A stretch of 57,958 nucleotides of DNA from Pseudomonadota bacterium (GTDB lineage Bacteria; Pseudomonadota; Alphaproteobacteria; Rhizobiales; Rhizobiaceae): NCBI GenBank assembly GCA_023387775.1, contig JAEWHN010000384.1, positions 1 through 57,958 on the forward strand. The letters run 5' to 3'. The translations under genes and the position numbers were made by a program. This document shows, piece by piece, positions 6,530-50,140 of the stretch. The number at the start of each line of letters is the position of its first letter. The stretch's first letter is position 1. The notes below the pieces were generated by a model that worked only from the letters and a program-made list of their open reading frames with translations, was not told the DNA's origin and ran no database searches.

Positions 6530-6611
<82 letters not shown>

Positions 6612-7201: not shown

Positions 7202-8071
7202 ATGAGTGCCCCGCGTGCCGTGTGGAAAGGCTTTCTTCGCCTGGGCAACGTCACCTGCAGCGTAAAGCTGACGGGCGCAGTCACAGAGGCCGAGACGATC
7301 CATTTCAAGATCCTCAACCGCCAGACCCGGCAACCGGTCAAGGCGGCCTATGTCGACGAGGTGACCGAGAAGACCGTCGAGCCCGACGACCAGGTCAAGG
7401 GCTACGAGGTCGACAGGAACGAATACCTTCTGCTCGAGCCCGACGAGATCGCCGCCCTGAAGCCGCTTTCCGAGCACATCATGACTGTTGACGGGTTTGT
7501 CGAGGTAGCAGAGGTCGACCCGATCTATTTCGACAAGCCCTATTATGTCTCCCCGGCCGACAAGGCGTCGCTCGAGCCGTTCAGCCTGGTTCGCGAGGCC
7601 ATGCTGAAGACGAAGAAGGTGGCGCTAGCCTCCGTCGTGCTCTGGCAGCGCGAGCGCCATGTCCTGCTCGAGCCACTGGGTAAGGGCATCCTGCTGACGA
7701 TCCTACGCAACGCCAAGGAGGTCGTGCCGGCGTCGAATGTGTTCGGGCAGATGGAAGACGTGAAGATCGACCCGGAGATGACCGAGATCGCCAGCATGCT
7801 CATTGACAAGAAGGCGACCCACTTCGATCCGAGCAAGTTCGAGGATGCCTACGAGGACGCGCTGCGGCAGCTGATCGAATCGAAGCGCACCGGCAAACCG
7901 GCCCCCAAGCCTGCGCCGCGGCCGAAGGAGAACGTGAAGGATCTCGCCAGCATCCTGCGCAAGAGCCTCGAAGCCGAAGGTGTGGAGCCGCCGAAGGGCA
8001 AGAAGCCACGGGAAAAGCCACGGTCTCGAAACGAAAAAAAGCCCGCCGCCTCGGACGAGACGACGGACTGA
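7202..8071 (+). CDS. ku: Ku DNA end-binding protein (NHEJ)
   Basis: PRAVWKGFLRLGNVTCSVKL, VKGYEV, DPIYFDKPYYVSP, FDPSKFEDAYEDALRQLIESK; basic C-terminal tail. Confidence 0.95.
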   Translation: MSAPRAVWKGFLRLGNVTCSVKLTGAVTEAETIHFKILNRQTRQPVKAAYVDEVTEKTVEPDDQVKGYEVDRNEYLLLEPDEIAALKPLSEHIMTVDGFVEVAEVDPIYFDKPYYVSPADKASLEPFSLVREAMLKTKKVALASVVLWQRERHVLLEPLGKGILLTILRNAKEVVPASNVFGQMEDVKIDPEMTEIASMLIDKKATHFDPSKFEDAYEDALRQLIESKRTGKPAPKPAPRPKENVKDLASILRKSLEAEGVEPPKGKKPREKPRSRNEKKPAASDETTD

Positions 8072-8097
8072 ACAGCCCCCCCCGAGCAGCACCGACC

Positions 8098-8460
8098 CTA
8101 TGGCGGCGGCCGGCCGGTCATTGAGTACCAGGCGGCCGCGAAGCCCGCGGTTGCCGAGATGATGACTTTGCCGATACCCCAGACGGCCCCACCCAGCTTG
8201 CCGGCGAACAGCACCCGGTCCCGCACCTGCGCATATTCGGCTGTCGTGGGCTTGATCCCGTCGACCGCCTTCTCGAGCCCGTCTAGCCGGTGCTTGATGT
8301 GGTGGATCTCCATGCGCATCGCCTCGGCTGCCTCATAGCCGCGTTTGCGGCTCTCGGCGGCTTCCCTGCCCTGATCGGTCAAGGTTGCGAGCGCGGCATT
8401 CACCGCCTTCAACTGCTCCTCGAGCCGCACCTGGCGCTCACCCATCGATTCCCGCGTCAT
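8098..8460 (-). CDS. Coiled-coil protein with C-terminal TM helix, putative holin-like lysis protein
   Basis: Last gene of the lysis cassette; ATG 8460 overlaps the preceding stop; hydrophobic C-terminus. Confidence 0.55.
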   Translation of the reverse strand: MTRESMGERQVRLEEQLKAVNAALATLTDQGREAAESRKRGYEAAEAMRMEIHHIKHRLDGLEKAVDGIKPTTAEYAQVRDRVLFAGKLGGAVWGIGKVIISATAGFAAAWYSMTGRPPP

Positions 8461-8711
8461 TGGCCGCTCTCCACGCCGTGCCGGGTGCATTCGGTCTTTG
8501 TCCACACGCCGGCGCCGCATAGGCCGGCCGCCGTCTCGTTTATCTTGAGTTGGTCGGCCCGTGTCGCGCCGCGGGTGCCGATCAGCGACGTGCCGACCAC
8601 CTTGCGCAGCCCGTCAACGGTCACAGGCGCCGGCTGCGAAGTCGAACAGGCCGCCAGCATCGTTGCACCGGCGAAGATCAGCGCGCCATTTCTCAGCCGC
8701 GTTGCCCGCAT
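8457..8711 (-). CDS. Putative o-spanin (Rz1-like lipoprotein)
   Basis: MRATRLRNGALIFAGATMLAAC lipobox; overlaps the upstream i-spanin candidate in another frame. Confidence 0.7.
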   Translation of the reverse strand: MRATRLRNGALIFAGATMLAACSTSQPAPVTVDGLRKVVGTSLIGTRGATRADQLKINETAAGLCGAGVWTKTECTRHGVESGQ

Positions 8712-8841
8712 TGGTGTTCTCCTGGTTGATCTGCCGGATGAAACCGGCCTGCTCGATCGAGCGGCCGACGCGATAGGCATGCCAGTGGGTGACGCCGAGC
8801 AGCGCGGCGGCCGCGCCGGCAGCGAGGAGATAACCCCGCAT
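8614..8841 (-). CDS. Putative i-spanin (Rz-like)
   Basis: MRGYLLAAGAAAALLGVTHW N-terminal TM, helical body with Cys residues; directly follows the endolysin. Confidence 0.65.
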   Translation of the reverse strand: MRGYLLAAGAAAALLGVTHWHAYRVGRSIEQAGFIRQINQENTNAGNAAEKWRADLRRCNDAGGLFDFAAGACDR

Positions 8842-9602
8842 CACGACAGCCCCAGTGCCTTGCGCACCTGCGGCATGGCCGAGATGGCATAGACCGCAAA
8901 ACCGACGATGACGGCGACGAGGGCGAGTTGCACGCGCCAATCGAGCGCGCCGAACGCCGCCAGCGGCGTGCCGATCGCAGTCATGGACCAGGTCCAGAAC
9001 CGCTTCGACTTGCCCAGCGGCTCTTCCTTGGGGCGGGCCGGCGCCGGCGCGTCGCGCTCAGGCGCGGCCGCCCTCGCCTGCTTGACCTTGTCCAGCATCG
9101 CCTCGACACACTCCGGCGCCACCAGCACCTTGTTGAGGCCGTCGCCGCCATAGAAGGTCTGCCCGCGCTTCAGCTCGCGCTTCTGGCCCCTGGTTGCCGC
9201 GAGCACTGGCAGCGATGCCCACTCCTGCGCCAGCCGTTTCCCGAACTCCGTTCGATCGATCTTGCCGGCCATGAAGGCCTCGTAGCTACGGCGTTTGAGC
9301 AGGTGAAAGCCGAGCCGGTCCTGAAGATCCGCATCGAAGCGCTGGCTGTCGCGCAACCCGAGTTCCTTCGACAGGTCGATCAGCGTGGCCCGCAGGAACT
9401 GGTAACGGCCGGCCGCGCTCGAGCCGTGGCTTTTCGACCAGGCTTTCTGCGCATCGATCACCTCGCCCAGCGTCATGCTGGTGAGCGGCTTCGAAAGCTT
9501 GCCCTGCTTATTGGCATAAATCGTGCCGTAGCCCTGCGGCGCCTCGATATCGCCGATGAAGTCGAGCAGCATCGCCGCTCCGGCTGGAACGGTTTTATCC
9601 AT
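8841..9602 (-). CDS. Endolysin (lysozyme-like muramidase) with C-terminal TM helices
   Basis: LLDFIGDIEA, SSAAGRYQF, FDADLQDRL and LAQEWASLP motifs of lambda-type/GH104 lysozymes. Confidence 0.88.
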   Translation of the reverse strand: MDKTVPAGAAMLLDFIGDIEAPQGYGTIYANKQGKLSKPLTSMTLGEVIDAQKAWSKSHGSSAAGRYQFLRATLIDLSKELGLRDSQRFDADLQDRLGFHLLKRRSYEAFMAGKIDRTEFGKRLAQEWASLPVLAATRGQKRELKRGQTFYGGDGLNKVLVAPECVEAMLDKVKQARAAAPERDAPAPARPKEEPLGKSKRFWTWSMTAIGTPLAAFGALDWRVQLALVAVIVGFAVYAISAMPQVRKALGLS

Positions 9603-9678
9603 GGCTGGTCCTTTCCCGCCCCAAGGCGTGGTTGAATTTTCAGGTGATTGCCCGTGAGATCGGCGCTACGACTGGCGC

Positions 9679-9777
9679 ATGAACGCCCGCCGGATAGCGC
9701 TGCTCATATGCACGGCCTTGATGATGGTCTTGGCGATCTTCGGCATCCCGCCGGCGGTCATGCCGTCGCGGCGATGA
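9679..9777 (+). CDS. Possible small hydrophobic peptide (32 aa)
   Basis: MNARRIALLICTALMMVLAIFGIPPAVMPSRR; below the ORF-track cutoff, no clear RBS. Confidence 0.3.
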   Translation: MNARRIALLICTALMMVLAIFGIPPAVMPSRR

Positions 9778-10007
9778 CCTGTCCCAGCCCCACGCGTGGT
9801 TGTTCAAAGATCGCAAAGACGACGTGAAGAACGCCAAAGCACCGGAAGTAAGCCTTGGCGGCTATACTTGCGCGGTCATAATCCAAAATGCGTATGCCGC
9901 CGGTGGTGAAACTTACGAAATAGTTAACTTGCTGAATTATGCCTATTTATCAAAGCACTAGAAGCTGCGCCAATGCACTCGATCAGCCGCCGCCAAGTAC
10001 ATCAGCC

Positions 10008-10022
10008 TTAACGAACCGTTAA
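10008..10022. promoter_or_regulatory. CtrA binding site upstream of the pilin gene
   Basis: TTAA-CGAACCG-TTAA = TTAA-N7-TTAA in an AT-rich intergenic region; extra TTAAC half-site at 9924. Confidence 0.75.
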
Positions 10023-10137
10023 ATTGGCGTTGACTCGAATTCTCGCGCATCACAGGATCAAGTCAGGACGCAGGGGGACAATCCTTTTCCGAAGCAACGT
10101 CTTCGCCGTCCAGTGTGTGTAACTCTTGGGGTGTATT

Positions 10138-10371
10138 ATGAAGAATTTTGCAAACATTGCTCGGCAGTTCCGCGACGAAGAGACCGGCGCAGCCATGGTT
10201 GAATACAGCATTCTGCTCGGGCTGATTGCCGCTGCCACCATCACTGCGGTCATTGCTATTGGCGGATGGGTTACCGGTCAGTTCGCCGGTCTCTGCGACA
10301 CGCTGGCCGCAAACACCAGCGTTGCATGCGATGCAACGGGCGGTGCCGGCGGCGGCGGTGCCGGCGGCTGA
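10138..10371 (+). CDS. flp: Flp/Fap family type IVb (Tad) pilin
   Basis: Leader ...QFRDEETG^AAMVEY (Flp motif GxxxxEY) followed by a hydrophobic helix; C-terminal Cys pair and Gly-rich tail. Confidence 0.93.
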   Translation: MKNFANIARQFRDEETGAAMVEYSILLGLIAAATITAVIAIGGWVTGQFAGLCDTLAANTSVACDATGGAGGGGAGG

Positions 10372-10489
10372 GACGGACACTCAGCCAACGGTCATCGCAA
10401 CTTTATTGACCGGTTAGGAAGCTCGTTTTCACCCCCGTGTTTCCGATCCTTCCTGCCGGTCATGTCTCCTGCCAAAACACCAGGAGACT

Positions 10490-10540
10490 GTCGGCGCGCT
10501 CGGATTGGTTCCCCCAGGTTCCAGTCCGTAGCGCGCCGAC
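10490..10540. terminator. Long hairpin between the convergent pilin and tail genes
   Basis: GTCGGCGCGCT (10490-10500) pairs with AGCGCGCCGAC (10530-10540); inner CGGA/TCCG pairing. Confidence 0.6.
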
Positions 10541-10551
10541 GCCTTTCAAAG

Positions 10552-10878
10552 CTACGGCGTCACGGTGATCGGGATCACCTTTACGAAGCTCTTGCCGCTG
10601 GCATCCGTCGCTTTCGCGGTCACATTATGCGTACCCACCGTCAGCCCTCCGGACACGCGCAGTTCATCGCCGACTATTGCGAAAGACGCCGCCTGGTAGC
10701 GATAGACTGCGGTAACGTGAATCTTGTCGAACAGGAGCTGGTCGACATAGCCGGCCTTGGTGTCGCGGTAGATCGCCGTGACATGCAGCTTTTCTAACCA
10801 TTGCTTGTCGAGGAAATCGCCCGCGTTCTGATCGCGATAGGCCGCTGAACTAAGGAGCTTGTCGAGACTGACGCCCAT
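10552..10878 (-). CDS. Putative virion protein: three short repeats plus C-terminal half of a cadherin-like domain
   Basis: LDKLLSSAAYR / LEKLHVTAIYR / FDKIHVTAVYR, then FAIVGDELRV...VTAKATDASGKSFVKVIPITVT. Confidence 0.7.
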   Translation of the reverse strand: MGVSLDKLLSSAAYRDQNAGDFLDKQWLEKLHVTAIYRDTKAGYVDQLLFDKIHVTAVYRYQAASFAIVGDELRVSGGLTVGTHNVTAKATDASGKSFVKVIPITVTP

Positions 10879-10881
10879 GGC

Positions 10882-11889
10882 TCACGCCCTCGACCGAACG
10901 CCGGGCTCTGACGCGTTCAGTTCAGTCGGCGTCCAGTAGGTTCCTGTCGCAGGGGACGCGTCCCACGCCTCGGTGTAGTCCGCTGCGGAAACAGTCAGCG
11001 CGCGGTCGGCCCTGTCGTCATCTGTGCCGGCCACCCTGTAGAAAATATTCGACTTCTGCGGGCCGGACGCGTCTCGGAGCTTGTTGGCGGCCACCTTAAC
11101 TCGCTCGATCCGTTCACCGGCTGCGAGTGCCGGGAAGGCGGCCATCGCGACGGAAATCCGCTGATTCGCCGCGCCGCTCGTCATGTAGGTCGCGGCCGGA
11201 GTGATCTCGCTAAGTGCCGTGTGCCCCAACCCCGCCCATTCCGAATAATACCCGTTCGCGGCCGGAGCGCGCGACACCAGTTTGGACCCTAGCGTGTTCC
11301 AGTTTGCGACAATCACTTCTGAGTAGCGGGCAGACGCGGCTGCTTGGACAGTGCTCGTGCTGAGTCTGAACTTGTCCAGCGCTATAACACTCGGAAATGT
11401 CAAATTTGCATCGTCCACGGCGATGATGGGGACTCTATCCATATACACGCGGATGGAACCGGGGTTGCCGAGCTTGATATACACGTCGAAAGTGTAGGTC
11501 GTGGACAAGAGCAACCCGAGAGGGCCAGAAATACCGATCGACTCCCATGCGGCGCCGTTCCATTTTCGCGCCTCAAGCCGATCGGAGTTCGCCGCAGACT
11601 GCCACAGGGCAATTCTGTTCACGCCTCCCGCATACCACTTCGCAAAGTTTCGTTGCATGTTCTGAAAGGCGTTCGAAGCCCAGCTAGCAACGAAATGGGA
11701 CCAGAAATCATCCGCGGAGAATGACGTAGTGTCTATGAAGTTCGCGTCCTCCGCTCCGCTAGCGCACTGGATGGCGCACCGCGCATTGGCCGCCTTGTAG
11801 AAGCCAGCCGTAGAATTGTGTACGGCACCCGAGTACGCCGCGAAATCCTGAAGTTCCGCACCCTGAAAATAGGTAATGTCCGCCATCAC
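10882..11889 (-). CDS. Putative receptor-binding/tail-associated protein (beta-rich)
   Basis: Directly downstream of the tail-tip gene; aromatic, beta-strand-rich; DNA visibly more AT-rich than neighbours. Confidence 0.55.
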   Translation of the reverse strand: MMADITYFQGAELQDFAAYSGAVHNSTAGFYKAANARCAIQCASGAEDANFIDTTSFSADDFWSHFVASWASNAFQNMQRNFAKWYAGGVNRIALWQSAANSDRLEARKWNGAAWESIGISGPLGLLLSTTYTFDVYIKLGNPGSIRVYMDRVPIIAVDDANLTFPSVIALDKFRLSTSTVQAAASARYSEVIVANWNTLGSKLVSRAPAANGYYSEWAGLGHTALSEITPAATYMTSGAANQRISVAMAAFPALAAGERIERVKVAANKLRDASGPQKSNIFYRVAGTDDDRADRALTVSAADYTEAWDASPATGTYWTPTELNASEPGVRSRA

Positions 11890-11899
11890 GCGATGTCCT

Positions 11900-14800
11900 T
11901 CAATCTATGATCTCGAATGTGATCGGGGCCATGCCGCCGACCGTGGAAAGCTTGCCGACGACTGTTCCCGTCGTGGCGCTGACCGAAACCGTGTCGTTGT
12001 CGATCAGGATGTCCGAAGGGCCGGGCGTCGCGAGGATGACCGGGATGGAATAGGACCGCCATGCAACACGCCCATCGCGCTCGGAAGAGACGACGATGTA
12101 GCCCTGTCCCAACTCGCCGAAATCGGCCTTGGACACCGCATGCGACGTCCCTGCAATCCCGGTGTAAGCATGGACGACCACGCCGGCCGGATCGGTCAGG
12201 GTGAGCGTAGTCGTCTGGCCTGCCTCTGGCGTCTGATCGGGGTCAGTCCATGCGAGTGGCGCGGCCTCTGTGAGCCGGTTGCGGCGCGCCCATGTGACCG
12301 GAATGATGCTGAGCCCGGTTGCATCGACGGGACCAGCCGGTTCAATCTTGGCGTTTCGATATGGCCTGATCGCCCGGCTGGCGAACATCACCGTATCGGT
12401 CGGCGCTTCTGCTTCATCCAGTTCGCCCCGCCCGGTCTCCGTCTTCAGCTTGACGCTGATCAGATCCCCGGCGCTGCGCTCGACCACATCGCTGTCGGAG
12501 AAGTCGTCGAAGAAGACCACGGGCGCCCCATCGGCATGCGCCTGCGGCACGGTATCAAGGCAGCCGCGGCCGATGGTCAGCGTGTTGCCGGCAATGGCAT
12601 CAACGCGCACGATCTCGTCACCAATCGAGGCGAGCGAGCCCACAGCCACCAGATCAAGGTCGGTCGCGCCGCGCACCGTCAGCGACGTTTCCAGCGCCTC
12701 GAGCGCGCCATTGACCAGAGCGGACGGTGCGAACCGCAGCCGCTCGCCCAGGTCTTCGTAGCCGGTGCCGTCATCGATCGCGACCACGGCCTGGATGGAA
12801 TCGTCGGTCGGCCTGCCGCCCGCAAACTGGACCAGCCCCGCATCCGGGTTTGCGGCCAGCTGCGTGCCGGCACTGGCCTCACCCACGGCCTGCACCATCT
12901 CGCGATAGGGCATTTCATGCACAAGGCGGCGCTCGACAGGGGCCGGTTCGCTCGACGGGTTCTCCCACTCCGAGCCTTCGTCGATGATCAGCGGATCGGC
13001 ATCGATGCCGAACACGTCCTGCACGAACTTCAGGCGAACGGCGTTGCTGCGGCCGTCGCCAAGCTTGATCTCGGTAACGCGCATGACTTCGCCAGAGAAG
13101 CCGAGGCGCTCGGAAAACAGCCTGAACGGATCGCCGGGGTTGAGGCCCGACAGCGTGCGCTTGACCGTGATGTTGCCATCGGCAAAGCCGGAGCCAAGGG
13201 CATGCAAATCGCGCTCGGCCAAACGGCTGGCAAGTTCCATCGTCTGCACGCCGGGATAGTGCCGCGTGATCGGAACGGTGCCTTCGCTCAACTGGACCTG
13301 CGCCGGGTTGTGGGCGACGTAGATGCCGTCCTTGCCCTGCTTGCGGTCGAAATACTTCACCGCAACGGAGGTGACCGCCTCGGCCGGCTGGCGGCGCCGG
13401 ACTTCCTCAACCGAGATGATGTCTTCGTCGGTGACCACCGGAATGGCATCGAGATCGTAGTCGTTCCGGATCAGCTTGATTTCGAACTTGCCGGTCCGGC
13501 GATCGACGTAGACATAGGCGTCGATGTGCGACTGGACCATTTGAGCGAATTCGGAGATCTCCTCTTCGCGTTGCCACAGCAGCGTCAGGCCGAAGCCTTC
13601 GTTGTAGAGCGTGTCGGCCGCAGCCACCCAGGAGGGGCCCATATCGCTCTCCTTGTAGCCCATGCCCTTCACCGGATCGGTCACGCATTCCCGGATGATG
13701 TGGGCCGGGTTCATGTCGACATTGGCCGAGAAGGCGAAGGACAGTGCGTCCCGAAGCGGCTTAGGATCGCCACCAGAGACAACCGGCACGCCATCATCCG
13801 GCGTGTTGTCGAGTTTCCTGGTCTCGCTGATGTCAGGGAGATCGATGTTGAAGGCGTAGGCCTCAACATTCGAAATCGCCATCAACGTCGCGGCTGCGGT
13901 GTCCGCGCTGCCGACAGTCGGGAGTCCGTCCGTGACGAAGATGAAGATGCGGCGCTTTGTGCCGGAACCTGCAAAGAACGATGAGGCTTGGCTTACTGCA
14001 GCCTCGAAGCTGGTGTCGCCAGCGGCGCTCAGACCGTTCACCCATGCGATCAGGTCGTTGTAGCCGGTATTCGTGACGTTGCGGCGCTCAATGCTAGTGG
14101 CGACCGTCGTCGACCAGGCCACCATCCGGACATCGAGCTTCACCGCGCCGCTGTCGCGCAGCATCTGCAGTGTGCCAATGACGGCTGCCTTCATGTTGGC
14201 CAGGCGCGCACCAGCCATCGAGCCGGACACGTCGAGCGCGATGTAGACCGCCGCGTTCTCGACCTTGACCTCACCGATGCCTGCCTTGGCCGAATACCAT
14301 ACCGGCGAGCCGTCCCACTTCTTGAAAACGCGCTGCGTGGTGAAGGACCATGGCGCCAGATAGGGCGTCTCGCCCATGTTCGGGCGGCGCAGAACCGCAC
14401 CGACCACGCCACGGAAAGCGGGAACGTCCGCTCCAAGCCTATCCTTCAGGTAACTGTTCTGGCCCTGGTTCGGCGCCCCCATCTCGATATCGACGTCGCC
14501 ATAGATGGTTCCAGCATTGCCGCCCGCCTTGCCTTTGACCGCAATGCGACCGCCCTTGCAGATGCCCTTCCACAGGTCATTGTCACCCGCCTTGATGCGG
14601 TAGACGGCATCGGCAACGCCATGACACAGGATCATGTGCATGCCGAGGAAGTAGTTGTGGCCGATGGTCTGGCGCGGGCCGAACAGGCCGTAGCGCCGCC
14701 CGCCATAGATATCGTCGGCCTTGAGATGCCCCCACCAGTGGACGTTCGGGCCAGTCAGTTCCTTGGTGCCGAACAGCCACGGGAGTTCCCGGCTCTCATC

Positions 14801-14926
14801 GGCGGTCGGAACGGTGAAGTCATCGACGGAGGCCGGCTTGGCGTTTTGCGGCTTGGGCCCCAAAATTAGGTTGATGGCAAAGCTACCAACCGCGCTAACC
14901 AGCCCGATGACAAGGTTCCAGAACAT
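11900..14926 (-). CDS. Tail tip / host-specificity protein with inserted vWA domain
   Basis: ELPWLFGT, NPAHIIRECVTD..GMG, GRGCLDTVPQAH and VTWARRNRL tail-tip motifs; vWA LDVSGSM...FVTDG at about 13742..14257. Confidence 0.85.
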   Translation of the reverse strand: MFWNLVIGLVSAVGSFAINLILGPKPQNAKPASVDDFTVPTADESRELPWLFGTKELTGPNVHWWGHLKADDIYGGRRYGLFGPRQTIGHNYFLGMHMILCHGVADAVYRIKAGDNDLWKGICKGGRIAVKGKAGGNAGTIYGDVDIEMGAPNQGQNSYLKDRLGADVPAFRGVVGAVLRRPNMGETPYLAPWSFTTQRVFKKWDGSPVWYSAKAGIGEVKVENAAVYIALDVSGSMAGARLANMKAAVIGTLQMLRDSGAVKLDVRMVAWSTTVATSIERRNVTNTGYNDLIAWVNGLSAAGDTSFEAAVSQASSFFAGSGTKRRIFIFVTDGLPTVGSADTAAATLMAISNVEAYAFNIDLPDISETRKLDNTPDDGVPVVSGGDPKPLRDALSFAFSANVDMNPAHIIRECVTDPVKGMGYKESDMGPSWVAAADTLYNEGFGLTLLWQREEEISEFAQMVQSHIDAYVYVDRRTGKFEIKLIRNDYDLDAIPVVTDEDIISVEEVRRRQPAEAVTSVAVKYFDRKQGKDGIYVAHNPAQVQLSEGTVPITRHYPGVQTMELASRLAERDLHALGSGFADGNITVKRTLSGLNPGDPFRLFSERLGFSGEVMRVTEIKLGDGRSNAVRLKFVQDVFGIDADPLIIDEGSEWENPSSEPAPVERRLVHEMPYREMVQAVGEASAGTQLAANPDAGLVQFAGGRPTDDSIQAVVAIDDGTGYEDLGERLRFAPSALVNGALEALETSLTVRGATDLDLVAVGSLASIGDEIVRVDAIAGNTLTIGRGCLDTVPQAHADGAPVVFFDDFSDSDVVERSAGDLISVKLKTETGRGELDEAEAPTDTVMFASRAIRPYRNAKIEPAGPVDATGLSIIPVTWARRNRLTEAAPLAWTDPDQTPEAGQTTTLTLTDPAGVVVHAYTGIAGTSHAVSKADFGELGQGYIVVSSERDGRVAWRSYSIPVILATPGPSDILIDNDTVSVSATTGTVVGKLSTVGGMAPITFEIID

Positions 14927-14938
14927 TCGGCTGTGCCC

Positions 14939-16312
14939 CTAAATGATCGAAGAGCCGAACGGGTTCTTGGAGCTCATCCAGGAAAACCCACCGTGGTTTA
15001 GGCCGTTGTTGAAGCGCTTGTTGCAGCGCTTGCGGGTCTGGTCGCAGCCGGGGAACAGAAGCACGTTCACCGAGCCCTTCAGGGCCAGTTCCTGCGCCAT
15101 GCCGGGGATCTGGGCGCTGATCGTGATCTCGTTGCCCTTGTGCCGGCGGATGTGGGCCAGCAGCCCGTTCCACTCGATGATGCCGGCTTTGAAGTCGTTG
15201 GCCGGTGCCGTGGCCGCCTCTGGTGCCGTGAGCTTCAGCCCGTTGATCGCAGTGACGGTTGTCGGCACCTTGAAGTCATTGCGGTTGAGGTTGCAGCCGA
15301 GATGATAGAGCGCATGCCGGCATGGCCTTTGCTGACGCTGGGAGCAGCCCGCGCGGCGAAGGGACGTGAACACACTCTCGGCCGTCACCTCGATCTGTTC
15401 CTTCTTGATCGAGGCGCCGACGACGCGGCCCTTCCACGTCACCTCGAACTGGCCCGACAGGTCGGTTCTGTGACCGCGCCAGATCGTAATCGTGGTCACC
15501 ACCGAGGCGGGTTGCAGGAAGGTGCGGGCGAAGGGGTTGGACAGGCCGAAAATGAACCGCAGGTCGTTGCGCTCAACGCTGCCGGTCACCTCGATGTTGC
15601 CGTGGCTGATTTCGGACGGTTCCCATGTCTCACCCATGGCGGTGACGGGCTTGGCCTCCGAGGTCAGCCGGACCTGGCCGTCACTGATGCCGAAAGCTAC
15701 TGCCAGCGCAGCTGTGAGAGGCCCGGCGTAACCGCTGGTGATGACCGGCACGCCATCGCCATGCGTGTTGTCGAGCATCTTCGTGTATGTCGTGTCCCCC
15801 TCATCGATGTTGAAGCAATAGACTTCAACGTCCGGGATGCCGGCGAGCGTTGCCGCAGCAGTCGAGGCGGTCGATGCAGGTTCCGGAAGTCCGTCCGTGA
15901 TGAAGATCAGAACCCGCCGCTTCGTCCCAGAACCGGCGAAGAACGCTCCCGCCTGGCTGACGGCGGCGCTGAAGTTAGTTCCGCCCGACGCGGTCAACGT
16001 CGCCAGCCAACCGGCGACGTCGGCGAAGCCCTGCGCATCAATAGCCCTGCGCTCGATCGAGCCCGCCACCGATGCTGACCAGGCCACCATCCGAACATCG
16101 ATCGGCCCGGTGCTATTCGCCTGAATATTCGCGAGCGTCGATTGGACTGCCGCGGCCATGTTTTCAAGGCGCTGGCCGTCCATCGAACCGGAAACGTCCA
16201 GCGCGAAATAGATGGCCGCATTGCCAATCTCCACCCTACCGCCGCTATCGAACAGGTAGAGGAAATATGGAGACCCGGCCGCTACCGAGGCTTCCTGTGC
16301 GTCATAGCTCAT
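14939..16312 (-). CDS. Tail hub protein (DUF2163/BR0599-like) with inserted vWA domain
   Basis: CRHALYHLGC and PGCDQTRKRCNKRFNNGLNHGGF Cys motifs; vWA LDVSGSM...FITDG at about 15700..16223. Confidence 0.85.
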   Translation of the reverse strand: MSYDAQEASVAAGSPYFLYLFDSGGRVEIGNAAIYFALDVSGSMDGQRLENMAAAVQSTLANIQANSTGPIDVRMVAWSASVAGSIERRAIDAQGFADVAGWLATLTASGGTNFSAAVSQAGAFFAGSGTKRRVLIFITDGLPEPASTASTAAATLAGIPDVEVYCFNIDEGDTTYTKMLDNTHGDGVPVITSGYAGPLTAALAVAFGISDGQVRLTSEAKPVTAMGETWEPSEISHGNIEVTGSVERNDLRFIFGLSNPFARTFLQPASVVTTITIWRGHRTDLSGQFEVTWKGRVVGASIKKEQIEVTAESVFTSLRRAGCSQRQQRPCRHALYHLGCNLNRNDFKVPTTVTAINGLKLTAPEAATAPANDFKAGIIEWNGLLAHIRRHKGNEITISAQIPGMAQELALKGSVNVLLFPGCDQTRKRCNKRFNNGLNHGGFSWMSSKNPFGSSII

Positions 16313-27436: not shown

Positions 27437-28729
27437 TCAGGCCGGAACGTCGAGAGCGACGAAAGGCGAGACCTCGTAGCCATTCTCTTCCGTGAACGGT
27501 GCGTTCATCCAAGGTGCGCCGTCGACGTTCCAGAAGATCTTGATGACCGTCTTGTTGGAGGTGAACTTGACGTGCTCGGAAGCGGCGACGAACGGGCCGG
27601 AGCCATCCTTGATCAGATAATAGCTCCAGTCGGCGAGCAGGATATCACCCTTGGTGCCCAGCGCCGGAGCGCGGTTGTTCCAGCGCACCGGGTAGCCGAG
27701 CAACGTGCCTGCGAAGCCGTCGCGGGCATTGGCGATCCAGATATAGTTGCCGTTCTCATCCTTCAGCTTAGCGATCTGCGGCAGAGCACCTTGTGGGATC
27801 GACCACACCGGCGAGCCGCCGCGCATCAGCAGCACCGCCACCATGTTCACCAGATCAGTGTAACTGACCTGGTTGGCGACGGCGCGATGGACGCGCTTGA
27901 GCACCGGGGAATTGAGTGCGCCGAGCGGCTGACCATTGCCGGTGCCGCGCAGATATGCGTAATCTTCCGCCGCCGAGACGCCGCCACGCATCAGGTTCTC
28001 CAGGAAGGAGGCAGATGCCTGCCAGTTGCGGAGCAACTTGTCTGTGACTGTCACGAAACCGGCGATTTCGTGCGGGACCAGAGTAACGCCCCTGAGCTCG
28101 GCATCGGTCTCCGGCTTTTCGCCGCCTTCCTCGATCCACGAGAAGGTCATGCCGCCGAAGACATTGCCCGGATTTGATCCGCTCTGATCCAGTGCCGGCA
28201 TGGTGATTCCGGCATCCGGCGGCGATCCGGCTGGAATCACGTTAGCGCGCGGGCGAACCAGCGCATCCTGCGGCGACACGCTCACGATGGTGGGACGAAA
28301 TTGCGTCGGCACCATGAACCCGCCCTGGCGGTCGTTGTCCACGCGCATTTCGGCGCGAAGGCCACCTTCACCCGTCTCGGCGCCGACACCTTCGACGAAT
28401 TCCAGACGCTGGTCGCTCGGCCGGAAGCGCACCGCGCTCAGGAACTCGCCGATGCTCTCGAACTCTCGTGCAGCCGGATCGCCGCCAGGGCGCTGGATGC
28501 CGGCGCGGCGAGATGCCGCCGGAACCACTTCGTCCAGAACCGCCTCAGAGGCTTCGACGCCTTCCAGGCGCTCGATACGCTTGTCGAGGTCATCCTTCGA
28601 TGCTTTGGCCGTGTCGAACGCCGTTTGTTCTTCTGCGGTGAGATCACGATCCTCACCCTCGGCGGCTTCGATGATACCGCGCATCTCGGCGACGAGCTTT
28701 GCGCGCTTCTCTCGGAGTTGCTTCAGCAT
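27437..28729 (-). CDS. Major capsid protein (HK97 fold)
   Basis: N-terminal coiled-coil delta domain; GGFMVP, WIEEGGEKPET, GTGNGQPLG and TLLGYPV motifs. Confidence 0.95.
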   Translation of the reverse strand: MLKQLREKRAKLVAEMRGIIEAAEGEDRDLTAEEQTAFDTAKASKDDLDKRIERLEGVEASEAVLDEVVPAASRRAGIQRPGGDPAAREFESIGEFLSAVRFRPSDQRLEFVEGVGAETGEGGLRAEMRVDNDRQGGFMVPTQFRPTIVSVSPQDALVRPRANVIPAGSPPDAGITMPALDQSGSNPGNVFGGMTFSWIEEGGEKPETDAELRGVTLVPHEIAGFVTVTDKLLRNWQASASFLENLMRGGVSAAEDYAYLRGTGNGQPLGALNSPVLKRVHRAVANQVSYTDLVNMVAVLLMRGGSPVWSIPQGALPQIAKLKDENGNYIWIANARDGFAGTLLGYPVRWNNRAPALGTKGDILLADWSYYLIKDGSGPFVAASEHVKFTSNKTVIKIFWNVDGAPWMNAPFTEENGYEVSPFVALDVPA

Positions 28730-29714: not shown

Positions 29715-31084
29715 TCGCCGTCCCTTTCCGCGCGCTGGTCCGCCTCATCCTCTTCAGGATCAGGCTCACGGTTTGCCGCCGGAGCAGCGGAACCATTCGG
29801 TTGATAGTTCGGATCGGTGGCGCGCTTCAGCGTCACCATGTTTGCCGGCACGAAATGCTCATCTCCCTCCGGCCCGATCGGATCTTCGTCCTCGAGCTGC
29901 AGAATCCTGTTTGGCGAAAAGCCACCGACACTGAAAATCTTGTTGTAAAACTCCGCTCGCGTCTTCATATCCCCGCGCAAAAGCGCGTTCATGTTGAACT
30001 TGACGTAGTAGCCCTGCTCCTTCTCTTCGTCGGTGAAGAGCTTCCAGTTGAGTTCCTGCTCCCAGGCATCGACCCACGGACCGACCGTTTGGCGAATGAA
30101 GCCGATCATCAACTGTTCGATGCCCGATCCCCACGACGTCGTCTTCTCATGGCTCTGGAGCAGAACGAGTGGGACATCGAAGATCCGGGCAATCTCGGCG
30201 ATCTGGAATTCGCGACTGCCAAGGAACTGCGCATCCTCAGGCGGAATGGTCGTCTGAACAAACTTCATGCCTTCTTCGAGGACCTTCACGCGATGGGCGT
30301 TATCGAGGCCGCTCTGTTGATCGAGTTTGGAAGCAGGATTCTCTGGATTGCGCCCGATCTCGCCGTTTGGTCCTTTGATGTTCTGTCTGGCGCCAGCACT
30401 GAGCTTTCCCGGATGAAGCAGGAAGCCGCCAGACTTGGCGTCGTTCGCGAAGAATTTACCTCCGAACGCCTCCATCGCGAGCCCCATACTTACCGCTTCG
30501 CGCGCCATCGCCACCTGCGATATGCCAAGATAGCCATCCTGCGACTGGTCCATGATGTGGATGACGTCGTTCGGATCGAGCGTGACGTTGCGCCCGTCGA
30601 TCGTAGACCTGAAGAAGAACTCGCCGTTTTCTTTGACTGGCCGAGTGCGGTCCGGAAGCAGAGGATAGAGTCCCACGGCTTGGCCGCGACGATTGCGTTC
30701 GATCTCCTGATAACCGTTGCCCCAAAGAAGCGCATGCGCCTGCGTTGTCTTGCGCACGGTACGCGAACTCATCAGCTCATTTGGTCGGACACCAATTCTT
30801 CCCGCAAATGGATGCTGACCGGGACCGTTTCCCTGCGCAACGAGAGCTTTTCCCCCAGCCGCCCGGCTCCGATACATCTTCAAAGGAAACCATGCCACCG
30901 GATTGCTGATCCGGTTCACGCAGGCATAGACCACGGGAAGTTTCAGTGCCGAAAACTCTGTCACCGGCACGCCGGCGTTAGTCTTGCCGCCGCCGATCAT
31001 GCGGACGAACCAGCCCCCCGGGCTGCTGACCGGCTCTGAAGGCAAATACCGGTCTATCGCAAAGAGACGCGAAAGGAAGCTCAT
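29711..31084 (-). CDS. Portal protein (HK97 family)
   Basis: VYACVNRIS, LLWGNGY, DAQFLGSREFQIAEIARIFDVP and LLRGD motifs. Confidence 0.95.
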   Translation of the reverse strand: MSFLSRLFAIDRYLPSEPVSSPGGWFVRMIGGGKTNAGVPVTEFSALKLPVVYACVNRISNPVAWFPLKMYRSRAAGGKALVAQGNGPGQHPFAGRIGVRPNELMSSRTVRKTTQAHALLWGNGYQEIERNRRGQAVGLYPLLPDRTRPVKENGEFFFRSTIDGRNVTLDPNDVIHIMDQSQDGYLGISQVAMAREAVSMGLAMEAFGGKFFANDAKSGGFLLHPGKLSAGARQNIKGPNGEIGRNPENPASKLDQQSGLDNAHRVKVLEEGMKFVQTTIPPEDAQFLGSREFQIAEIARIFDVPLVLLQSHEKTTSWGSGIEQLMIGFIRQTVGPWVDAWEQELNWKLFTDEEKEQGYYVKFNMNALLRGDMKTRAEFYNKIFSVGGFSPNRILQLEDEDPIGPEGDEHFVPANMVTLKRATDPNYQPNGSAAPAANREPDPEEDEADQRAERDGE

Positions 31085-32880
31085 CAGATGTCGATCTCCA
31101 TAAGCCCTCTGCTCTCGTAGACCGATGGGCCGTCGTCGGGCTGGATCGCAAGTGCAGTCGCCATGACCGCGGCGACGATCCCGTCGATCTTTTCTGCCGA
31201 CCGCTTCTTCGCCGGCACGAAGTTCAGGTTCTCATCGAACCGGACAGCAGCATTGCCAGCCATCCAGCGCAGAACAGGATTGCCGCCATGATCCAGAGAT
31301 CCGCTATAGACCAGGCGTTCGAAGAACTTGGTTGGCTCGCCCAGCGTCTGGTGTCCCTGCCGGATCTTCAGCAACAGGTCTTCCGACACGCCTTCCTTGA
31401 TCAGGTCGGTGTAAAGCTTCGTGGCGTTCCACGGATCGTACCCGAGCAGTGCTACGTCGAACACTTCCAACCCTTCGAGGATCGCCCGCAGCACATAGTC
31501 CTGATCGACATAATCGCCGGGGGTCGGCTCGATCGCACAAAGCTTCTGCCACTTGTCGTAGGACACCCTGTCCTGCTTCGACCGCCTCTCGATACTTTCC
31601 TCAGGCACCCAGAAACGGCATACCACCCGCCATTTCGGATCGTCGTCGGTCGGCGGAAACAACCAGATCAGCGCCGTGATGTCGTCGGTCGACGACACGT
31701 CGAAGGCGCCGTAGCACCTGCGACCGGCCAGCCCTGCCGCTTCCATCTTTTCGGTGAAGCTCTCGCCCTGCTTGACGACTAGCGTTTCCCAGCTCGTACG
31801 GTCTTCGGCGCAGGCGTCCCATTTCTTCAGGTTCAGCCAGCGGGTGACAGCGTCGATCCACTGGTTGAGGTGGTAGCATCGAAAGTGCGCTTCTGCCCTT
31901 GGATTGTCCGCTGCGATCGCCGCTTCACGCCTCAGGAAGGCCAACGTCGGCGAAATGCCGAGCGACGGATTTGCCAGCGACCAGTTGCTTTCGTCCTGCC
32001 AGTCCGCATCCTCGTCGATTGCGAAGATCACGACGAGGCTGGTCGGATCGTCAATTCGGCCGTCGAGGATCGAGACCGATTCCTCCCATAGCGCCCAACC
32101 GGTTGGGTTGGTCTTCAGGCCCGCCGTCGAGGCGTAGAGCTCAATCGGCTCGAGCCGGGCGCCAGTACCTTGCCGCAACGTTCCTGCAAGCTCGGCGCTT
32201 TGCCATTCATGCATCTCGTCGCCAGTTATCACCGTTGGCGAGCGGCCGTGCTTTCCTTCCGGCTTCCCCGTGAGCACCTCGAATACCGATCTGATCTTAG
32301 GGATCCAGATCGACTTCTTGAACGCCTGCGCCTTGTCCGCCAGCCCCGGCGACATGGCAATCATGGCCTTCATCTTGTCGAAGACGACGCGAGCCTGCTT
32401 TTCGTCACGCGCGAACGCAAAGCCCTGCCCGCCAACCACACCGTCCAGCACGAAGAAGAGCAGCGACAACGCCGCCAGAAACTCCGATTTGCCGTTCTTG
32501 CGCGGCACCCACAGGAGCAGGCGCCGGAAGAGCCTGACCTGCTCTGTTCGAACCGGCGAATGTTCATCGTCCTGAATGTCGATCGGGACTTTCCACCCGA
32601 CCAGCATGCGAACAATGATTTCCTGCCACAGACCAAGGCGGAACGGCCTGCCGGCGAACCGATCCTCGGTAAGCCGGAAAATCTTGGGGAACAGCGTGAC
32701 CGCCGCATCCGCTTTACGTTCATCGAACCAGGCACCCGGCTGCGACGCAGCCCGTCGCCATTGCACTCGCGCCCAATCCCAGCCTCGAGCAACCGCATCA
32801 GCTATCCATTGCGGCTCGGGCCAGAGAAGGTGGCCGGCGGACGCTGCTATGGCGACGGCCGACACATCAGCCGCGGTCAT
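31084..32880 (-). CDS. terL: Terminase large subunit
   Basis: PRKNGKS Walker A, DEMHE Walker B, STAG, ANPSLG and KIDGIVA motifs. Confidence 0.96.
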   Translation of the reverse strand: MTAADVSAVAIAASAGHLLWPEPQWIADAVARGWDWARVQWRRAASQPGAWFDERKADAAVTLFPKIFRLTEDRFAGRPFRLGLWQEIIVRMLVGWKVPIDIQDDEHSPVRTEQVRLFRRLLLWVPRKNGKSEFLAALSLLFFVLDGVVGGQGFAFARDEKQARVVFDKMKAMIAMSPGLADKAQAFKKSIWIPKIRSVFEVLTGKPEGKHGRSPTVITGDEMHEWQSAELAGTLRQGTGARLEPIELYASTAGLKTNPTGWALWEESVSILDGRIDDPTSLVVIFAIDEDADWQDESNWSLANPSLGISPTLAFLRREAAIAADNPRAEAHFRCYHLNQWIDAVTRWLNLKKWDACAEDRTSWETLVVKQGESFTEKMEAAGLAGRRCYGAFDVSSTDDITALIWLFPPTDDDPKWRVVCRFWVPEESIERRSKQDRVSYDKWQKLCAIEPTPGDYVDQDYVLRAILEGLEVFDVALLGYDPWNATKLYTDLIKEGVSEDLLLKIRQGHQTLGEPTKFFERLVYSGSLDHGGNPVLRWMAGNAAVRFDENLNFVPAKKRSAEKIDGIVAAVMATALAIQPDDGPSVYESRGLMEIDI

Positions 32881-35894: not shown

Positions 35895-36448
35895 CTCCCT
35901 GCCCTCTTCCATGCGTCGAAGGCGGCGCGCAGGTCCTTCCAGCGCGCGGTTGCCTTGCCGCCGTCGTTGAATTCCCGGCGCGATGTCACGCCGCACAGCG
36001 AGCGCACCTTTTGCGCCACGCGCTCATCGGTCAGCGGGCGTTCCAGCCCGTGACACTGTTCCAGGAACACGCGAAACGCGGCCTCCTGGCATTTCATGGC
36101 GGCCTCGGCCGCGAAGTCCTTGCCGCCTTCGCCGCCCGGCTGTGCGGCCGCCTGCGCCTGCCGTGCAGCCTCCGCCCTGGCACGGCGCGCCGCGGCAATG
36201 GCGCGGTCGACGAGGCCGAGCAGAAACCGCACATGCTCAGGCGCTGCGGTGGTGAACTCGATTTCATCCAGCGTGGCGCCAGCATGGAAGCGCGCCACCG
36301 GCAGCAGCTCGCCCTGCGGCCCGCGCGCCTCGACGAAAGCTCCGTCGCCGTCCTCGGCCCGCAGCCACTCGCCGGGCGCGATCGCCGCGAGCTGCCGCCG
36401 AATCCGGCCGAGCCGGAGCGCTTCCTCTTGCCTGGCAGCGCTCGTCAT
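35891..36448 (-). CDS. Hypothetical phage protein
   Basis: Coupled ATGA overlaps at both ends; VRSLCGVTSRREFN motif. Confidence 0.7.
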   Translation of the reverse strand: MTSAARQEEALRLGRIRRQLAAIAPGEWLRAEDGDGAFVEARGPQGELLPVARFHAGATLDEIEFTTAAPEHVRFLLGLVDRAIAAARRARAEAARQAQAAAQPGGEGGKDFAAEAAMKCQEAAFRVFLEQCHGLERPLTDERVAQKVRSLCGVTSRREFNDGGKATARWKDLRAAFDAWKRAGR

Positions 36449-50096: not shown

Positions 50097-50140
50097 CCCC
50101 CAGTCAAGTGCGCTACCGGGCTGCGCTACACTCCGAACCG
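50097..50140. repeat. attR core; displaced 5' half of tRNA-Pro
   Basis: Identical to 6568..6611; contains tRNA 5' end to anticodon loop only. Confidence 0.96.

Follow-up and report, generated by a model that had tools for sequence, protein, structure and literature searches.

The window analysed here (the whole 57,958-nucleotide stretch of DNA) very probably carries a moron, in the form of a self-contained Tad/Flp major-pilin cassette of host origin seated in a prophage that is integrated at a tRNA-Pro gene. What is newly seen is that the flp block, promoter included, is by alignment homologous to the flp locus of the host itself, and that just the C-terminal loop, bounded by a predicted disulfide, differs between the two. 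The initial annotation had taken the gene for a foreign pilin, and in this respect it needs correcting: the whole cassette and the Tad pilin gene of the host are paralogues, 73-76% identical.

The cassette and its place in the prophage

The prophage that encloses the cassette is about 43.5 kb long, has 44-bp repeats at both limits together with a tRNA-Pro gene and an integrase, and also contains TerL and capsid genes (Table 1). As originally described, flp lies antisense between the tail and lysis genes, with the minus-strand endolysin on its left and minus-strand tail genes starting from 10552 on its right. The small overlapping ORFs downstream of the endolysin are the presumed holin/spanin part of the lysis cassette; their best PHROG matches are families of unknown function, and a Pfam search with them returned no family matches. 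On the other side, the distal tail genes encode a 108-aa protein, a 335-aa protein (phrog_6368) and a 1008-aa VWA-domain tail protein (phrog_1101), and these same genes adjoin flp in five IMG/VR loci. Searches for the 335-aa protein in 400 further genomes of the order and in phage records gave no match; it has one locus among genome contigs, and the same element is present in IMG/VR. Elsewhere, the prophage also codes for a receiver-less CtrA-like DNA-binding protein. A chimeric assembly or a mis-called host flank was considered as the origin of this arrangement and ruled out, because the cassette is merely 73-76% identical to the host copy and lies 3.5 kb inside the att repeats, and because the same arrangement occurs in an isolate genome and in a viral genome with terminal repeats.

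Table 1. Features of the flp cassette and of the surrounding prophage (positions in the window)
Feature	Position	Strand	Evidence
tRNA-Pro	6530..6606	-	ARAGORN
Left att repeat, 44 bp, overlaps tRNA-Pro	6568..6611	.	exact direct repeat of 50097..50140
Small overlapping ORFs downstream of endolysin	8098..8520, 8457..8780, 8614..8940	-	phrog_5211, phrog_19660, phrog_23603
Endolysin, left neighbour of flp cassette	8841..9602	-	phrog_90, E 2.3e-36
Complete flp cassette, homologous to host chromosomal flp locus on contig C311	9881..10546	+	blastn
CtrA-type full box TTAACGAACCGTTAA	10008..10022	+	sequence; aligned in 27/27 first-in-array flp promoters
Putative promoter: TTGACT (10030..10035), 17-nt spacer, CAGGAT (10053..10058)	10030..10058	+	sequence reading
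flp, 77-aa Flp/Tad prepilin	10138..10371	+	ORF, Pfam, subfamily alignment
Three tandem stem-loops after flp	10407..10462, 10464..10488, 10490..10540	+	folding
Distal tail genes, right neighbours of flp	10552..14926	-	PHROG and Pfam searches
Tyrosine integrase, right prophage end	48908..50086	+	Pfam Phage_integrase, E 1.3e-28
Right att repeat, 44 bp	50097..50140	.	exact direct repeat of 6568..6611

The complete Flp pilin ORF is present as claimed, running from an ATG at 10138 to a stop codon at 10369-10371. Its translation reads ...EETG/AAMVEYSILLGLI... across the processing region, where the slash marks the predicted cleavage site (G17/A18), and the protein follows the Flp layout of a short leader (residues 1-17), a G/XXXXEY processing motif and then a hydrophobic helix (...EETG/AAMVEYSILLGLIAAATITAVIAIG) that extends from residue 18 to about residue 52. 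Beyond the helix, Cys53 and Cys64 bound a 10-residue loop, which is followed by a 13-residue Gly-rich tail. Against Pfam Flp_Fap (PF04964) the protein scored 25.2 bits (E 1.4e-5), short of the gathering score of 32.2, and it had no matches in NCBIfam; among aligned members of its subfamily, 12 of 14 matched PF04964 at E <= 1e-3 (best 3.6e-8). The top two PDB matches of the subfamily profile, though weak (E 0.12-0.16), are the Tad pilins 8u1k and 8u2b, and profile position 18 aligns with mature residue 1 of both. By these sequence features the product is predicted to be a bona fide Tad pilin. A whole-genome search placed no other Flp_Fap match on the prophage contig.

The cassette spans the promoter, the 5'UTR, codons 1 to about 56 and the 3' hairpins. 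In blastn comparisons with reverse-complemented C311, 9881..10305 aligned at 73% identity over 431 columns (E 6e-62) and 10404..10546 at 76% identity over 147 columns (E 3e-21), whereas the roughly 98 nt between them (10306..10403), which encode the C-terminal loop, could not be aligned with the C311 flp locus. Identity between the prophage Flp and the host pilin is likewise high through residue 53 and 0.17 beyond. Non-coding identity between the two cassettes is about 75%, even though synonymous sites are near saturation (pS 0.68).

Tad machinery is present in the host: contig C311 carries CpaB, the CpaC secretin, two TadE, TadG and CpaF, together with a weak CpaE-like match. The initial statement that the window holds no Tad assembly genes and no prepilin peptidase agrees with our whole-genome searches, which placed T2SSE ATPases on contigs C311 and C317 alone. 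In all three chromosomal loci inspected, flp orthologues lie directly upstream of cpaB; the prophage flp has no tad neighbours at all. A prepilin peptidase (CpaA/TadV, Peptidase_A24) was not found in the 88%-complete, 416-contig assembly by Pfam, nor by tblastn with the prepilin peptidases of six relatives, and an HMM built from the same six gave a best E of 0.04 there. Three of three relatives have two prepilin peptidase copies each.

Promoter region and 3' stem-loops

The region upstream of flp is AT-rich as reported, with a GC content of 0.46-0.47 over 9825..10049 compared with about 0.63 for the window, and TTAA-N7-TTAA was found where the initial annotation had placed it. This is the only such motif in the window (0.07 expected), and 19 occur in the whole 4.49 Mb assembly, 15 of them intergenic. 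Taken alone, the flp box is only weakly beyond chance, since 7 of 100 shuffled windows contain at least one. What makes it significant is that a box is retained at this alignment position in every related flp promoter (27 of 27), followed in each case after about 7 nt by TTGAC; the 5'UTR aligns too. Sixteen of these boxes are perfect, including those of all eight chromosomal flp copies, and 11 read TTAA-N7-CTAA (7/8 positions); the 19 phage-borne copies comprise 8 perfect boxes and all 11 of the variant form. In the prophage the box ends 7 nt upstream of TTGACT, and TTAA(10019)-N7-TTGA forms a third in-phase half-site across the -35. The TTGAC and CAGGAT-like columns are conserved across the promoter alignment. 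An E. coli-type consensus promoter scan did not call the proposed flp promoter, and our assignment therefore derives solely from this conservation.

The CtrA-type box is thus a conserved promoter element, and the host encodes CtrA (NF045991 CtrA equivalog on contig C122, 423.7 bits against a cut-off of 350). According to the initial annotation, CtrA activates pilA/flp in rhizobia; searching the literature for such control in Sinorhizobium gave no relevant paper. The activation of pilA by CtrA in Caulobacter, which the initial annotation had invoked, agrees with passages of PMC11264516. In the 27 flp 5'UTRs, RNAalifold gave a consensus of 4 pairs (-1.36). By eye, we also noticed a GGAC...GUCC stem in flp 5'UTRs.

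Downstream of the gene, the strong hairpin noted at the outset (10490..10540) is confirmed, as the last in a row of three stem-loops. The flp 3' region has a minimum free energy of -86.2 kcal/mol (z = -7.2), and none of 200 shuffles folds as well. The stem-loops (10407..10540) sit between the convergent flp and tail genes, and this region is conserved also 3' of the host flp on C311. A plus-strand scan for terminators of the E. coli type made no T-run terminator call and missed the hairpins, and an Rfam search of 9600..10600 gave no credible match (a lone SNORD48 at E 0.57).

Alleles, selection and carriage by other phages

Across 32 Flp sequences of the subfamily, host copies included, mean pairwise identity is 0.65 for residues 18-53 versus 0.18 after Cys53. 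The region after Cys53 is thus hypervariable; it is presumably also the exposed part. Over codons 1-53, dN/dS is about 0.10-0.27 where dS could be estimated, a pattern indicating that this part is under purifying selection and that the gene is selected and not decaying. In three pairs, the prophage allele is only 0.11-0.20 identical to the resident chromosomal allele after Cys53; two phage alleles are 0.68-0.76 identical over the same region to chromosomal alleles of other genomes. The C-terminal Cys pair and Gly tail had been proposed to give the prophage pilin a surface of its own. Part of this stands, in that the inter-Cys loop and the tail that follows do differ, but the Cys pair itself is a property of the subfamily, being present in 28 of the 32 sequences.

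An alignment-based scan of IMG/VR recovered 21 viral contigs with a related pilin, about 18 of them distinct, where a scan with the single prophage Flp protein had recovered none; tblastn with that protein against 50,697 deposited phage records also gave no matches. The flp ORF is intact in all 21 loci. In 9 of 10 loci tested an endolysin lies 0.3-1.6 kb to one side of flp, and in 4 of 10 there are tail-category PHROG matches on the other side. These endolysins have four different top PHROG families, with that of the window a fifth. One of the records, a genome that is 100% complete and has direct terminal repeats, holds flp internally, and 5 of 5 ORFs to the right of flp match tail PHROGs. 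Among 80 relatives found by tail protein, flp is present in two (and in 1 of the 36 with at least 3 kb downstream), which marks it as an accessory moron, dispensable for this phage type. The description of the locus as a prophage moron therefore fits: it lies within the att repeats and on the opposite strand, has its own putative promoter and terminators, and occurs in a minority of related phages. Only 4 of 18 viral records have the CtrA-like gene together with flp.

Proposed role and relation to known systems

Tad pili are widespread adhesins and phage receptors. In the reading that we put forward, CtrA of the lysogen's host would bind the conserved TTAA-N7-TTAA beside the -35 and turn on the prophage flp, whose cell-cycle stage of expression, promoter and 5'UTR would be those of the chromosomal pilin gene. 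Because the leader cleavage site is the same as in the host pilin and the assembly helix nearly so, we propose that the host prepilin peptidase would cut the prophage prepilin, and the host Tad machine could then polymerise it alongside the resident pilin or in its place. The pilus surface would be altered through the disulfide-bounded C-terminal loop and tail, as these are hypervariable, presumably exposed and different from those of the host. The main pay-off would be receptor replacement, with pilus-binding phages, including relatives of the prophage, ceasing to adsorb (superinfection exclusion), and altered adhesion would be a possible side effect of the re-coated pilus. We know of no pilus-dependent phage of this host. 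Taken as a whole, this chain from CtrA timing through co-assembly and a re-coated pilus to superinfection exclusion falls just short of what we would call probable.

A broader version, which is possible if rather doubtful, is that, among these alphaproteobacteria, temperate phages carry a shared pool of hypervariable Tad-pilin alleles, each moving with the CtrA-timed host pilin promoter and 5'UTR. Because the alleles would travel in this form, lysogeny is proposed to switch the 'serotype' of the Tad pilus, as a pilus counterpart of O-antigen seroconversion. The CtrA-type boxes may in some phages also be targets of a receiver-less CtrA-like DNA-binding protein. The likeness of phage alleles to chromosomal alleles elsewhere means that simple allele traffic fits as well as defence.

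The same anatomy of cassette homology, promoter and alleles would also fit if the pilin were assembled and its benefit lay in altered attachment, aggregation, biofilm formation or colonisation of host surfaces, with no protection from phages. Passages of PMC4018554 describe attachment mediated by the Tad/Ctp pili of Agrobacterium and Caulobacter, and the authors of PMC12482185 class Vibrio harveyi prophage Flp pilins as adherence factors in the part of that paper concerned with them. Yet a hypervariable loop and a location beside tail-fibre genes look like the receptor arms races treated in passages of PMC12952977, and the prophage allele differs from the resident one in three of three genomes, which is expected for receptor switching and not predicted by adhesion. 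We consider a benefit through adhesion unlikely. The tail bears on another outcome, that the prophage pilin enters the Tad machine and poisons it: at 13 residues after Cys64 it is the longest among the 32 sequences compared, and a longer Gly-rich tail could stall assembly, leaving pili short or absent, so that pilus-dependent phages would lose their receptor altogether. Assembly inhibition is suggested as one option for a truncated phage PilA in the text of Sztanko et al. (PMC12952977). However, purifying selection acts on the leader, cleavage site and helix, which are nearly identical to those of the host pilin; in relatives, the chromosomal pilins show loops and tails of a similar kind, the tails reaching 8 residues; and phage alleles reach 0.76 identity after Cys53 with chromosomal, presumably functional, pilins. 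We regard poisoning as improbable.

We give equally little credence to a neutral passenger, acquired when the phage recombined, illegitimately or homologously, with the host flp locus, and persisting for a while with no benefit to either phage or host. Its accessory status (2 of 80 tail-protein relatives) and the host-homologous sequence that bounds the cassette would suit such an origin, but the ORF is intact in 21 of 21 IMG/VR loci and sits in one and the same slot of phages whose endolysins fall into five families or more, the dN/dS of about 0.1-0.27 speaks for selection, and the promoter and 5'UTR are conserved beyond synonymous sites. Finally, the prophage pilin might stay unassembled in the inner membrane and feed a pathway that monitors pilin to sense surface contact and set the cell cycle, biasing development of the lysogen. 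PilA monomers of Caulobacter are reported, in passages of PMC7196804, to couple attachment to cell-cycle initiation, and the prophage encodes the CtrA-like protein. This signalling role is very improbable, as it has no locus-specific support, the CtrA-like gene accompanies flp in just those 4 of 18 viral records, and the hypervariable exposed loop would go unexplained if the membrane-embedded N-terminus alone mattered.

If the preferred reading of pilus re-coating is true, it would account for the hypervariability of the disulfide loop in this pilin subfamily, and prophages would emerge as vectors of pilin alleles. A tractable system would then be at hand in a cultured strain, Pseudaminobacter soli JCM 19897, whose two prophages of this type differ in their flp alleles and whose chromosome has an flp-cpaB locus.

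The definition of morons reportedly goes back to Juhala and Hendrix, and the classical lambdoid examples include lom and bor of lambda. Like these, the flp cassette appears to be an autonomous promoter-gene-terminator unit among late genes, near tail-fibre and lysis modules and patchy in relatives, which could be expressed from the prophage; unlike them, it brings in a copied host structural gene along with the regulatory region native to that gene, and not an unrelated outer-membrane protein. With chromosomal alphaproteobacterial Flp/PilA proteins it shares a leader with a G/A..EY motif followed by a hydrophobic helix, and it differs from chromosomal Tad pilin genes in lying, within a prophage, apart from any tad gene. 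The mature prophage pilin has 60 aa, compared with 45 aa in the solved pilins 8u1k and 8u2b, the extra part being the disulfide-bounded variable loop and the Gly-rich tail. A TTAA-N7-TTAA site is also present at the Caulobacter crescentus pilA promoter, which, in passages of PMC11264516, has four CtrA sites, whereas here there is one full box and a near-site overlapping the -35.

Flp family type IVb pilins have been annotated inside other tailed prophages, as cargo of Vibrio harveyi phi345-like prophages (virulence-factor table of PMC12482185) and in two Sinorhizobium meliloti phiLM21-like prophages (COG table of PMC12429752). In these parts of the two papers the mentions are at annotation level, and promoter, origin, position, alleles and function are not analysed. 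The Vibrio proteins belong to another subfamily, as tblastn with the prophage Flp found nothing in the 50,697 phage records.

The closest parallel is P-FimU, the FimU-like minor pilin that F10-like prophages of Pseudomonas aeruginosa encode (Sztanko et al., Cell Rep 2026, PMC12952977). According to passages of that paper, it becomes part of the type IV pilus and acts as a block to tip-binding phages; Xylella prophages with PilA-like genes are described there as well. Here as there, a host pilus subunit has a prophage-borne homologue that comes without assembly machinery and with a highly diverse exposed part, and the action, proposed or shown, is that the host subunit is replaced and adsorption of pilus-binding phages is blocked. 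The prophage Flp has the same division into a conserved assembly part and a divergent exposed part. Those systems belong to type IVa pili, with a minor (tip) pilin in the tested case, whereas the present one is a Tad (type IVc) major subunit, carried as a complete host cassette with the CtrA-type-box pilin promoter and 5'UTR and known from sequence alone. Replacement of a pilus component by the copy that a prophage encodes is so far known to have been demonstrated for a type IVa minor pilin only (PMC12952977). The flp locus and its approximately 18 distinct viral relatives suggest that the same strategy may exist for the Tad major subunit, with the added feature that the phage would import the host's own CtrA-type cell-cycle promoter and thereby match the timing of its allele to that of the resident pilin.

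The prophage and its pilin gene

Two exact 44-bp direct repeats enclose integrase, terminase, capsid, C5 methylase, tail and lysis genes, and their positions define a prophage of ~43.5 kb with flp ~3.5 kb inside its left end. The initial annotation had described a Flp pilin encoded between the tail and lysis genes on the opposite strand, in a window devoid of prepilin peptidase and cpa/tad genes. This description holds. The 77-residue ORF at 10138..10371 matches Pfam Flp_Fap (E 1.4e-5; 25.2 bits, under the curated 32.2), its neighbours lie on the other strand, and in whole-genome searches flp was the sole Flp_Fap match on the contig, where neither a T2SSE ATPase nor a peptidase A24 was found. 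The reported TTAA-N7-TTAA was likewise recovered, in an upstream region where GC drops to 0.46-0.47 (9825..10049), and the reported downstream hairpin proved to be the last of three stem-loops in a 3' region that folds much better than shuffled sequence (z = -7.2). The anatomy of the prophage pilin cassette is well supported.

Features of the prophage, its pilin cassette and the host pilin gene (positions in the window, except for the host gene)
Feature	Position	Strand	Remark
Left 44-bp repeat	6568..6611		overlaps tRNA-Pro 6530..6606
Ku gene	7202..8071	+	Pfam Ku, E 6e-39
Endolysin, left neighbour of flp	8841..9602	-	phrog_90
TTAA-N7-TTAA box, TTAACGAACCGTTAA	10008..10022		sequence reading
flp, 77 aa, MKNFANIARQFRDEETG then AAMVEYSILLGLIAAATITAVIAIGGWVTGQFAGLCDTLAANTSVACDATGGAGGGGAGG	ATG 10138 to stop 10369-10371	+	translation
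Stem-loops 3' of flp	10407..10462, 10464..10488, 10490..10540		fold prediction
Tail genes, right neighbours of flp	10552..14926	-	include a 1008-aa tail protein with VWA domain
1008-aa distal tail protein	11900..14926	-	Pfam VWA, E 1.4e-9
Next tail protein	14939..16312	-	DVSGSM-type motif by eye
Major capsid protein	27437..28729		between att repeats
TerL	31084..32880		between att repeats
673-aa protein, C5 cytosine methylase domain	36445..38466	-	prophage early region
131-aa winged-helix protein	44001..44396	-	receiver-less, OmpR-type; ParB-like gene adjacent
DUF5131 protein	47121..48047	+	E 4.9e-94; immediately upstream of integrase
Tyrosine integrase	48908..50086		
Right 44-bp repeat	50097..50140		11 bases past integrase gene
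Host Flp, 68 aa	C311, 2764..2970	-	

Usually, the duplicated 3' end of a tRNA gene lies beside the integrase. This prophage departs from that layout, as the part of the minus-strand tRNA-Pro gene that its repeat spans is the 5' one, and the integrase sits at the far end, by the partial copy. The Ku gene lies within the repeats at the lysis end, and an ATP-dependent DNA ligase (DNA_ligase_A_M) occupies the corresponding end of three other flp-bearing viral records, L046 (4-894), L048 (4025-4921) and L060 (4489-5367). End-joining functions seem to recur as cargo in flp-bearing phages; a table row in PMC12429752 lists LigD for an S. meliloti prophage.

Close homologues of the prophage Flp were found in 25/401 genomes of the order, this one counted, and in 6/7 genomes of one sister genus. 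Pseudaminobacter soli JCM 19897 supplied the only genome_contigs relative of the 335-aa protein adjacent to flp; its element, also present in IMG/VR as a provirus, carries flp in the equivalent position and orientation and has two perfect boxes. An alignment-based scan of IMG/VR returned 21 viral contigs with this pilin (~18 distinct). Of the 18 records searched, IMG/VR classes 7 as proviruses and 10 as linear fragments, the last being a genome with direct terminal repeats; five of the 18 are at least 90% complete. The window's tail genes stand beside flp in five loci, and the remaining viral loci present a different backbone with flp in the same slot. An endolysin lay 0.3-1.6 kb to one side in nine of ten viral loci tested (top PHROGs 7, 5867, 29753 and 1224, versus phrog_90 in the window); the far side held tail-category PHROGs in four and gave no PHROG match in six. 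The terminal-repeat genome has flp in its interior, flanked by an endolysin gene and by five ORFs that all match tail-related PHROGs. A viral record, L065 (100% complete by CheckV), has two tandem flp genes (7709..7945 and 8001..8237) with different loops. Carriage of this pilin is thus recurrent in phages, and the gene is accessory, being found in 2 of the best 80 IMG/VR relatives of the 1008-aa tail protein and in 1/36 among those with at least 3 kb downstream. With this accessory distribution and its own putative promoter and terminators, the cassette fits the usual definition of a moron, as had been proposed.

Kinship with the host pilin locus and a conserved promoter

By homology and gene neighbourhood, the flp product is very probably a genuine Tad pilin. 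PF04964 is matched by 12/14 aligned subfamily members, and the top two PDB matches of the subfamily profile, both weak (E 0.12-0.16), are the Tad pilins 8u1k (PilA) and 8u2b. In these weak matches profile position 18 aligns with mature residue 1 of either structure, which fits cleavage after Gly17. The predicted mature pilin would have 60 residues versus 45 in the solved pilins, the surplus being the Cys53-Cys64 loop and a Gly-rich tail. In one P. soli and two sister-genus chromosomal loci, the three inspected, the orthologue directly precedes cpaB, and in 3/3 relatives the flp array has a prepilin peptidase gene at a distance of 4.5-6 kb.

The pilin had been taken for a foreign one, which the host genome contradicts. 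In this assembly, contig C311 holds an flp gene together with CpaB, the CpaC secretin, TadG, two TadE, the start of CpaF and a weak CpaE-like match (Response_reg and AAA_31, both under Pfam cut-offs). The prophage cassette is 73% (9881..10305) and 76% (10404..10546) identical to this locus, across the AT-rich upstream region, the box (TTAATGAATCGTTAA in the host), TTGACTCGAA, the entire 5'UTR, codons 1 to ~56 and the three 3' hairpins; the intervening ~98 nt, encoding the C-terminal loop and tail, are unalignable. In codons 1-53, pS is 0.68, near saturation, and dN/dS is ~0.1. Since the non-coding flanks remain ~75% identical despite near-saturated synonymous sites, the regulatory sequence is conserved in its own right. 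Judged from these alignments, the cassette duplicates the pilin locus of the host together with its regulatory region. A prepilin peptidase was not found by three methods in this 88%-complete, 416-contig assembly. Two different T2SSE (CpaF-like) ATPase genes, on C311 and on contig C317, are both cut by contig ends, and a third Flp, of classical type (63 aa, 51 bits), lies on contig C350; the host is likely to possess at least two Tad-type systems.

A candidate CtrA box by itself, without conservation, would not convince. TTAA-N7-TTAA occurs once in the window (expected 0.07; at least one in 7/100 shuffles) and 19 times in the 4.49 Mb assembly, the prophage flp box included, with 15/19 intergenic. 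In an alignment of the 150-nt upstream regions from 27 flp genes standing first in their array (8 chromosomal, 19 phage-borne), the box fell in one and the same column in all 27. It was perfect in 16, including 8/8 chromosomal promoters, and read TTAA-N7-CTAA in 11, every one phage-borne. The box is followed by ~7 nt, TTGAC, 17 nt, a CAGGAT-like hexamer and a 5'UTR with GGGGGA; as the second TTAA is again 7 nt from TTGA, a third in-phase half-site would overlap the -35. According to PMC11264516, CtrA-activated promoters in Caulobacter mostly have their site at -35. A CtrA gene is present in the host, its product scoring 423.7 bits as NF045991 equivalog, where the cut-off is 350.

The ~75-nt 5'UTR (10059..10137) is kept between phage and host copies beyond the conservation of synonymous sites, with a pattern of GGAC..GGGGGA..GUCC and then GGGTAACAGGGG preceding the ATG in the 27 aligned loci. 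RNAalifold gave a weak consensus of 4 pairs, and a leader RNA element is possible. The 131-aa winged-helix protein of the prophage has the CtrA DNA-binding domain as its best NCBIfam match (E 5.9e-11, far under cut-off), is 35% identical to the C-terminus of host CtrA, including a ...DVF.CKLRKKL stretch, and has homologues in 4/18 flp-bearing viral records. It could act on CtrA boxes, including that of flp.

Variation after Cys53

Among 32 pilin sequences, mean pairwise identity was 0.55 in the leader, 0.65 over residues 18-53 and 0.18 after Cys53. Exactly two cysteines occur in 28/32, with loops of 5-17 and tails of 0-13 residues, so the Cys pair, which the initial annotation had considered distinctive along with the Gly tail, is a subfamily trait rather than a prophage novelty. 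The differing C-terminal sequence did stand up to comparison with the resident chromosomal alleles: after Cys53, prophage and resident pilins are 0.11-0.20 identical in three within-genome pairs (this genome, and P. soli twice). Over the same region, identity reaches 0.76 between one P. soli prophage allele and a chromosomal allele from a different genome, and 0.68 between one viral allele and another chromosomal allele, suggesting, from a small sample, that phage and host alleles form one pool. In this small sample, the allele that comes with a prophage tends to be dissimilar to the resident one. A single P. soli genome (loci L089, L090 and L091, on contigs C5, C22 and C13) holds two related prophages with different flp alleles, one flp next to cpaB on the chromosome, and a distant pair of flp genes in tandem, giving three different disulfide loops within one cell's genome.

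Possible functions and known counterparts

It is highly probable that this moron of the prophage encodes a functional Tad pilin and that its CtrA-type promoter is conserved. Counted against this reading, and against the mechanism proposed next, were the peptidase that was not found, the Pfam score under threshold and the 11 imperfect phage-borne boxes. We propose that the lysogen would use the native pilin promoter, controlled by CtrA, to transcribe the cassette, that a host peptidase would cut the prepilin, and that the host Tad machine would polymerise the prophage pilin together with, or in place of, the resident one. The altered loop would then change what pilus-binding phages or surfaces see.

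By analogy, the selected function may be superinfection exclusion through receptor replacement, a reading that we hold tentatively, at somewhat less than even likelihood. A change seen by surfaces could instead amount to adhesion conversion of the lysogen, which we consider unlikely. That the product poisons the pilus is improbable, and we think equally little of a neutral passenger. Signalling by pilin monomers seems very improbable indeed.

Flp pilins are already known as prophage cargo: they are listed for Vibrio harveyi prophages, without analysis in the parts of PMC12482185 covered, and for two S. meliloti phiLM21-like prophages, again without analysis in the table row (PMC12429752). PMC9437464, in which the word 'pilin' is absent, describes CtrA sites of phage genomes in connection with the timing of the lytic cycle. 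For a phage Tad major-pilin cassette with a CtrA promoter, we found no earlier description in literature outside subscription journals and supplements. PilA-like genes occur in Xylella prophages, according to PMC12952977. The same paper also offers a precedent for the proposed replacement of a pilus subunit: in P. aeruginosa, the FimU encoded by prophages becomes part of the type IV pilus and shuts out phages that bind the pilus tip.
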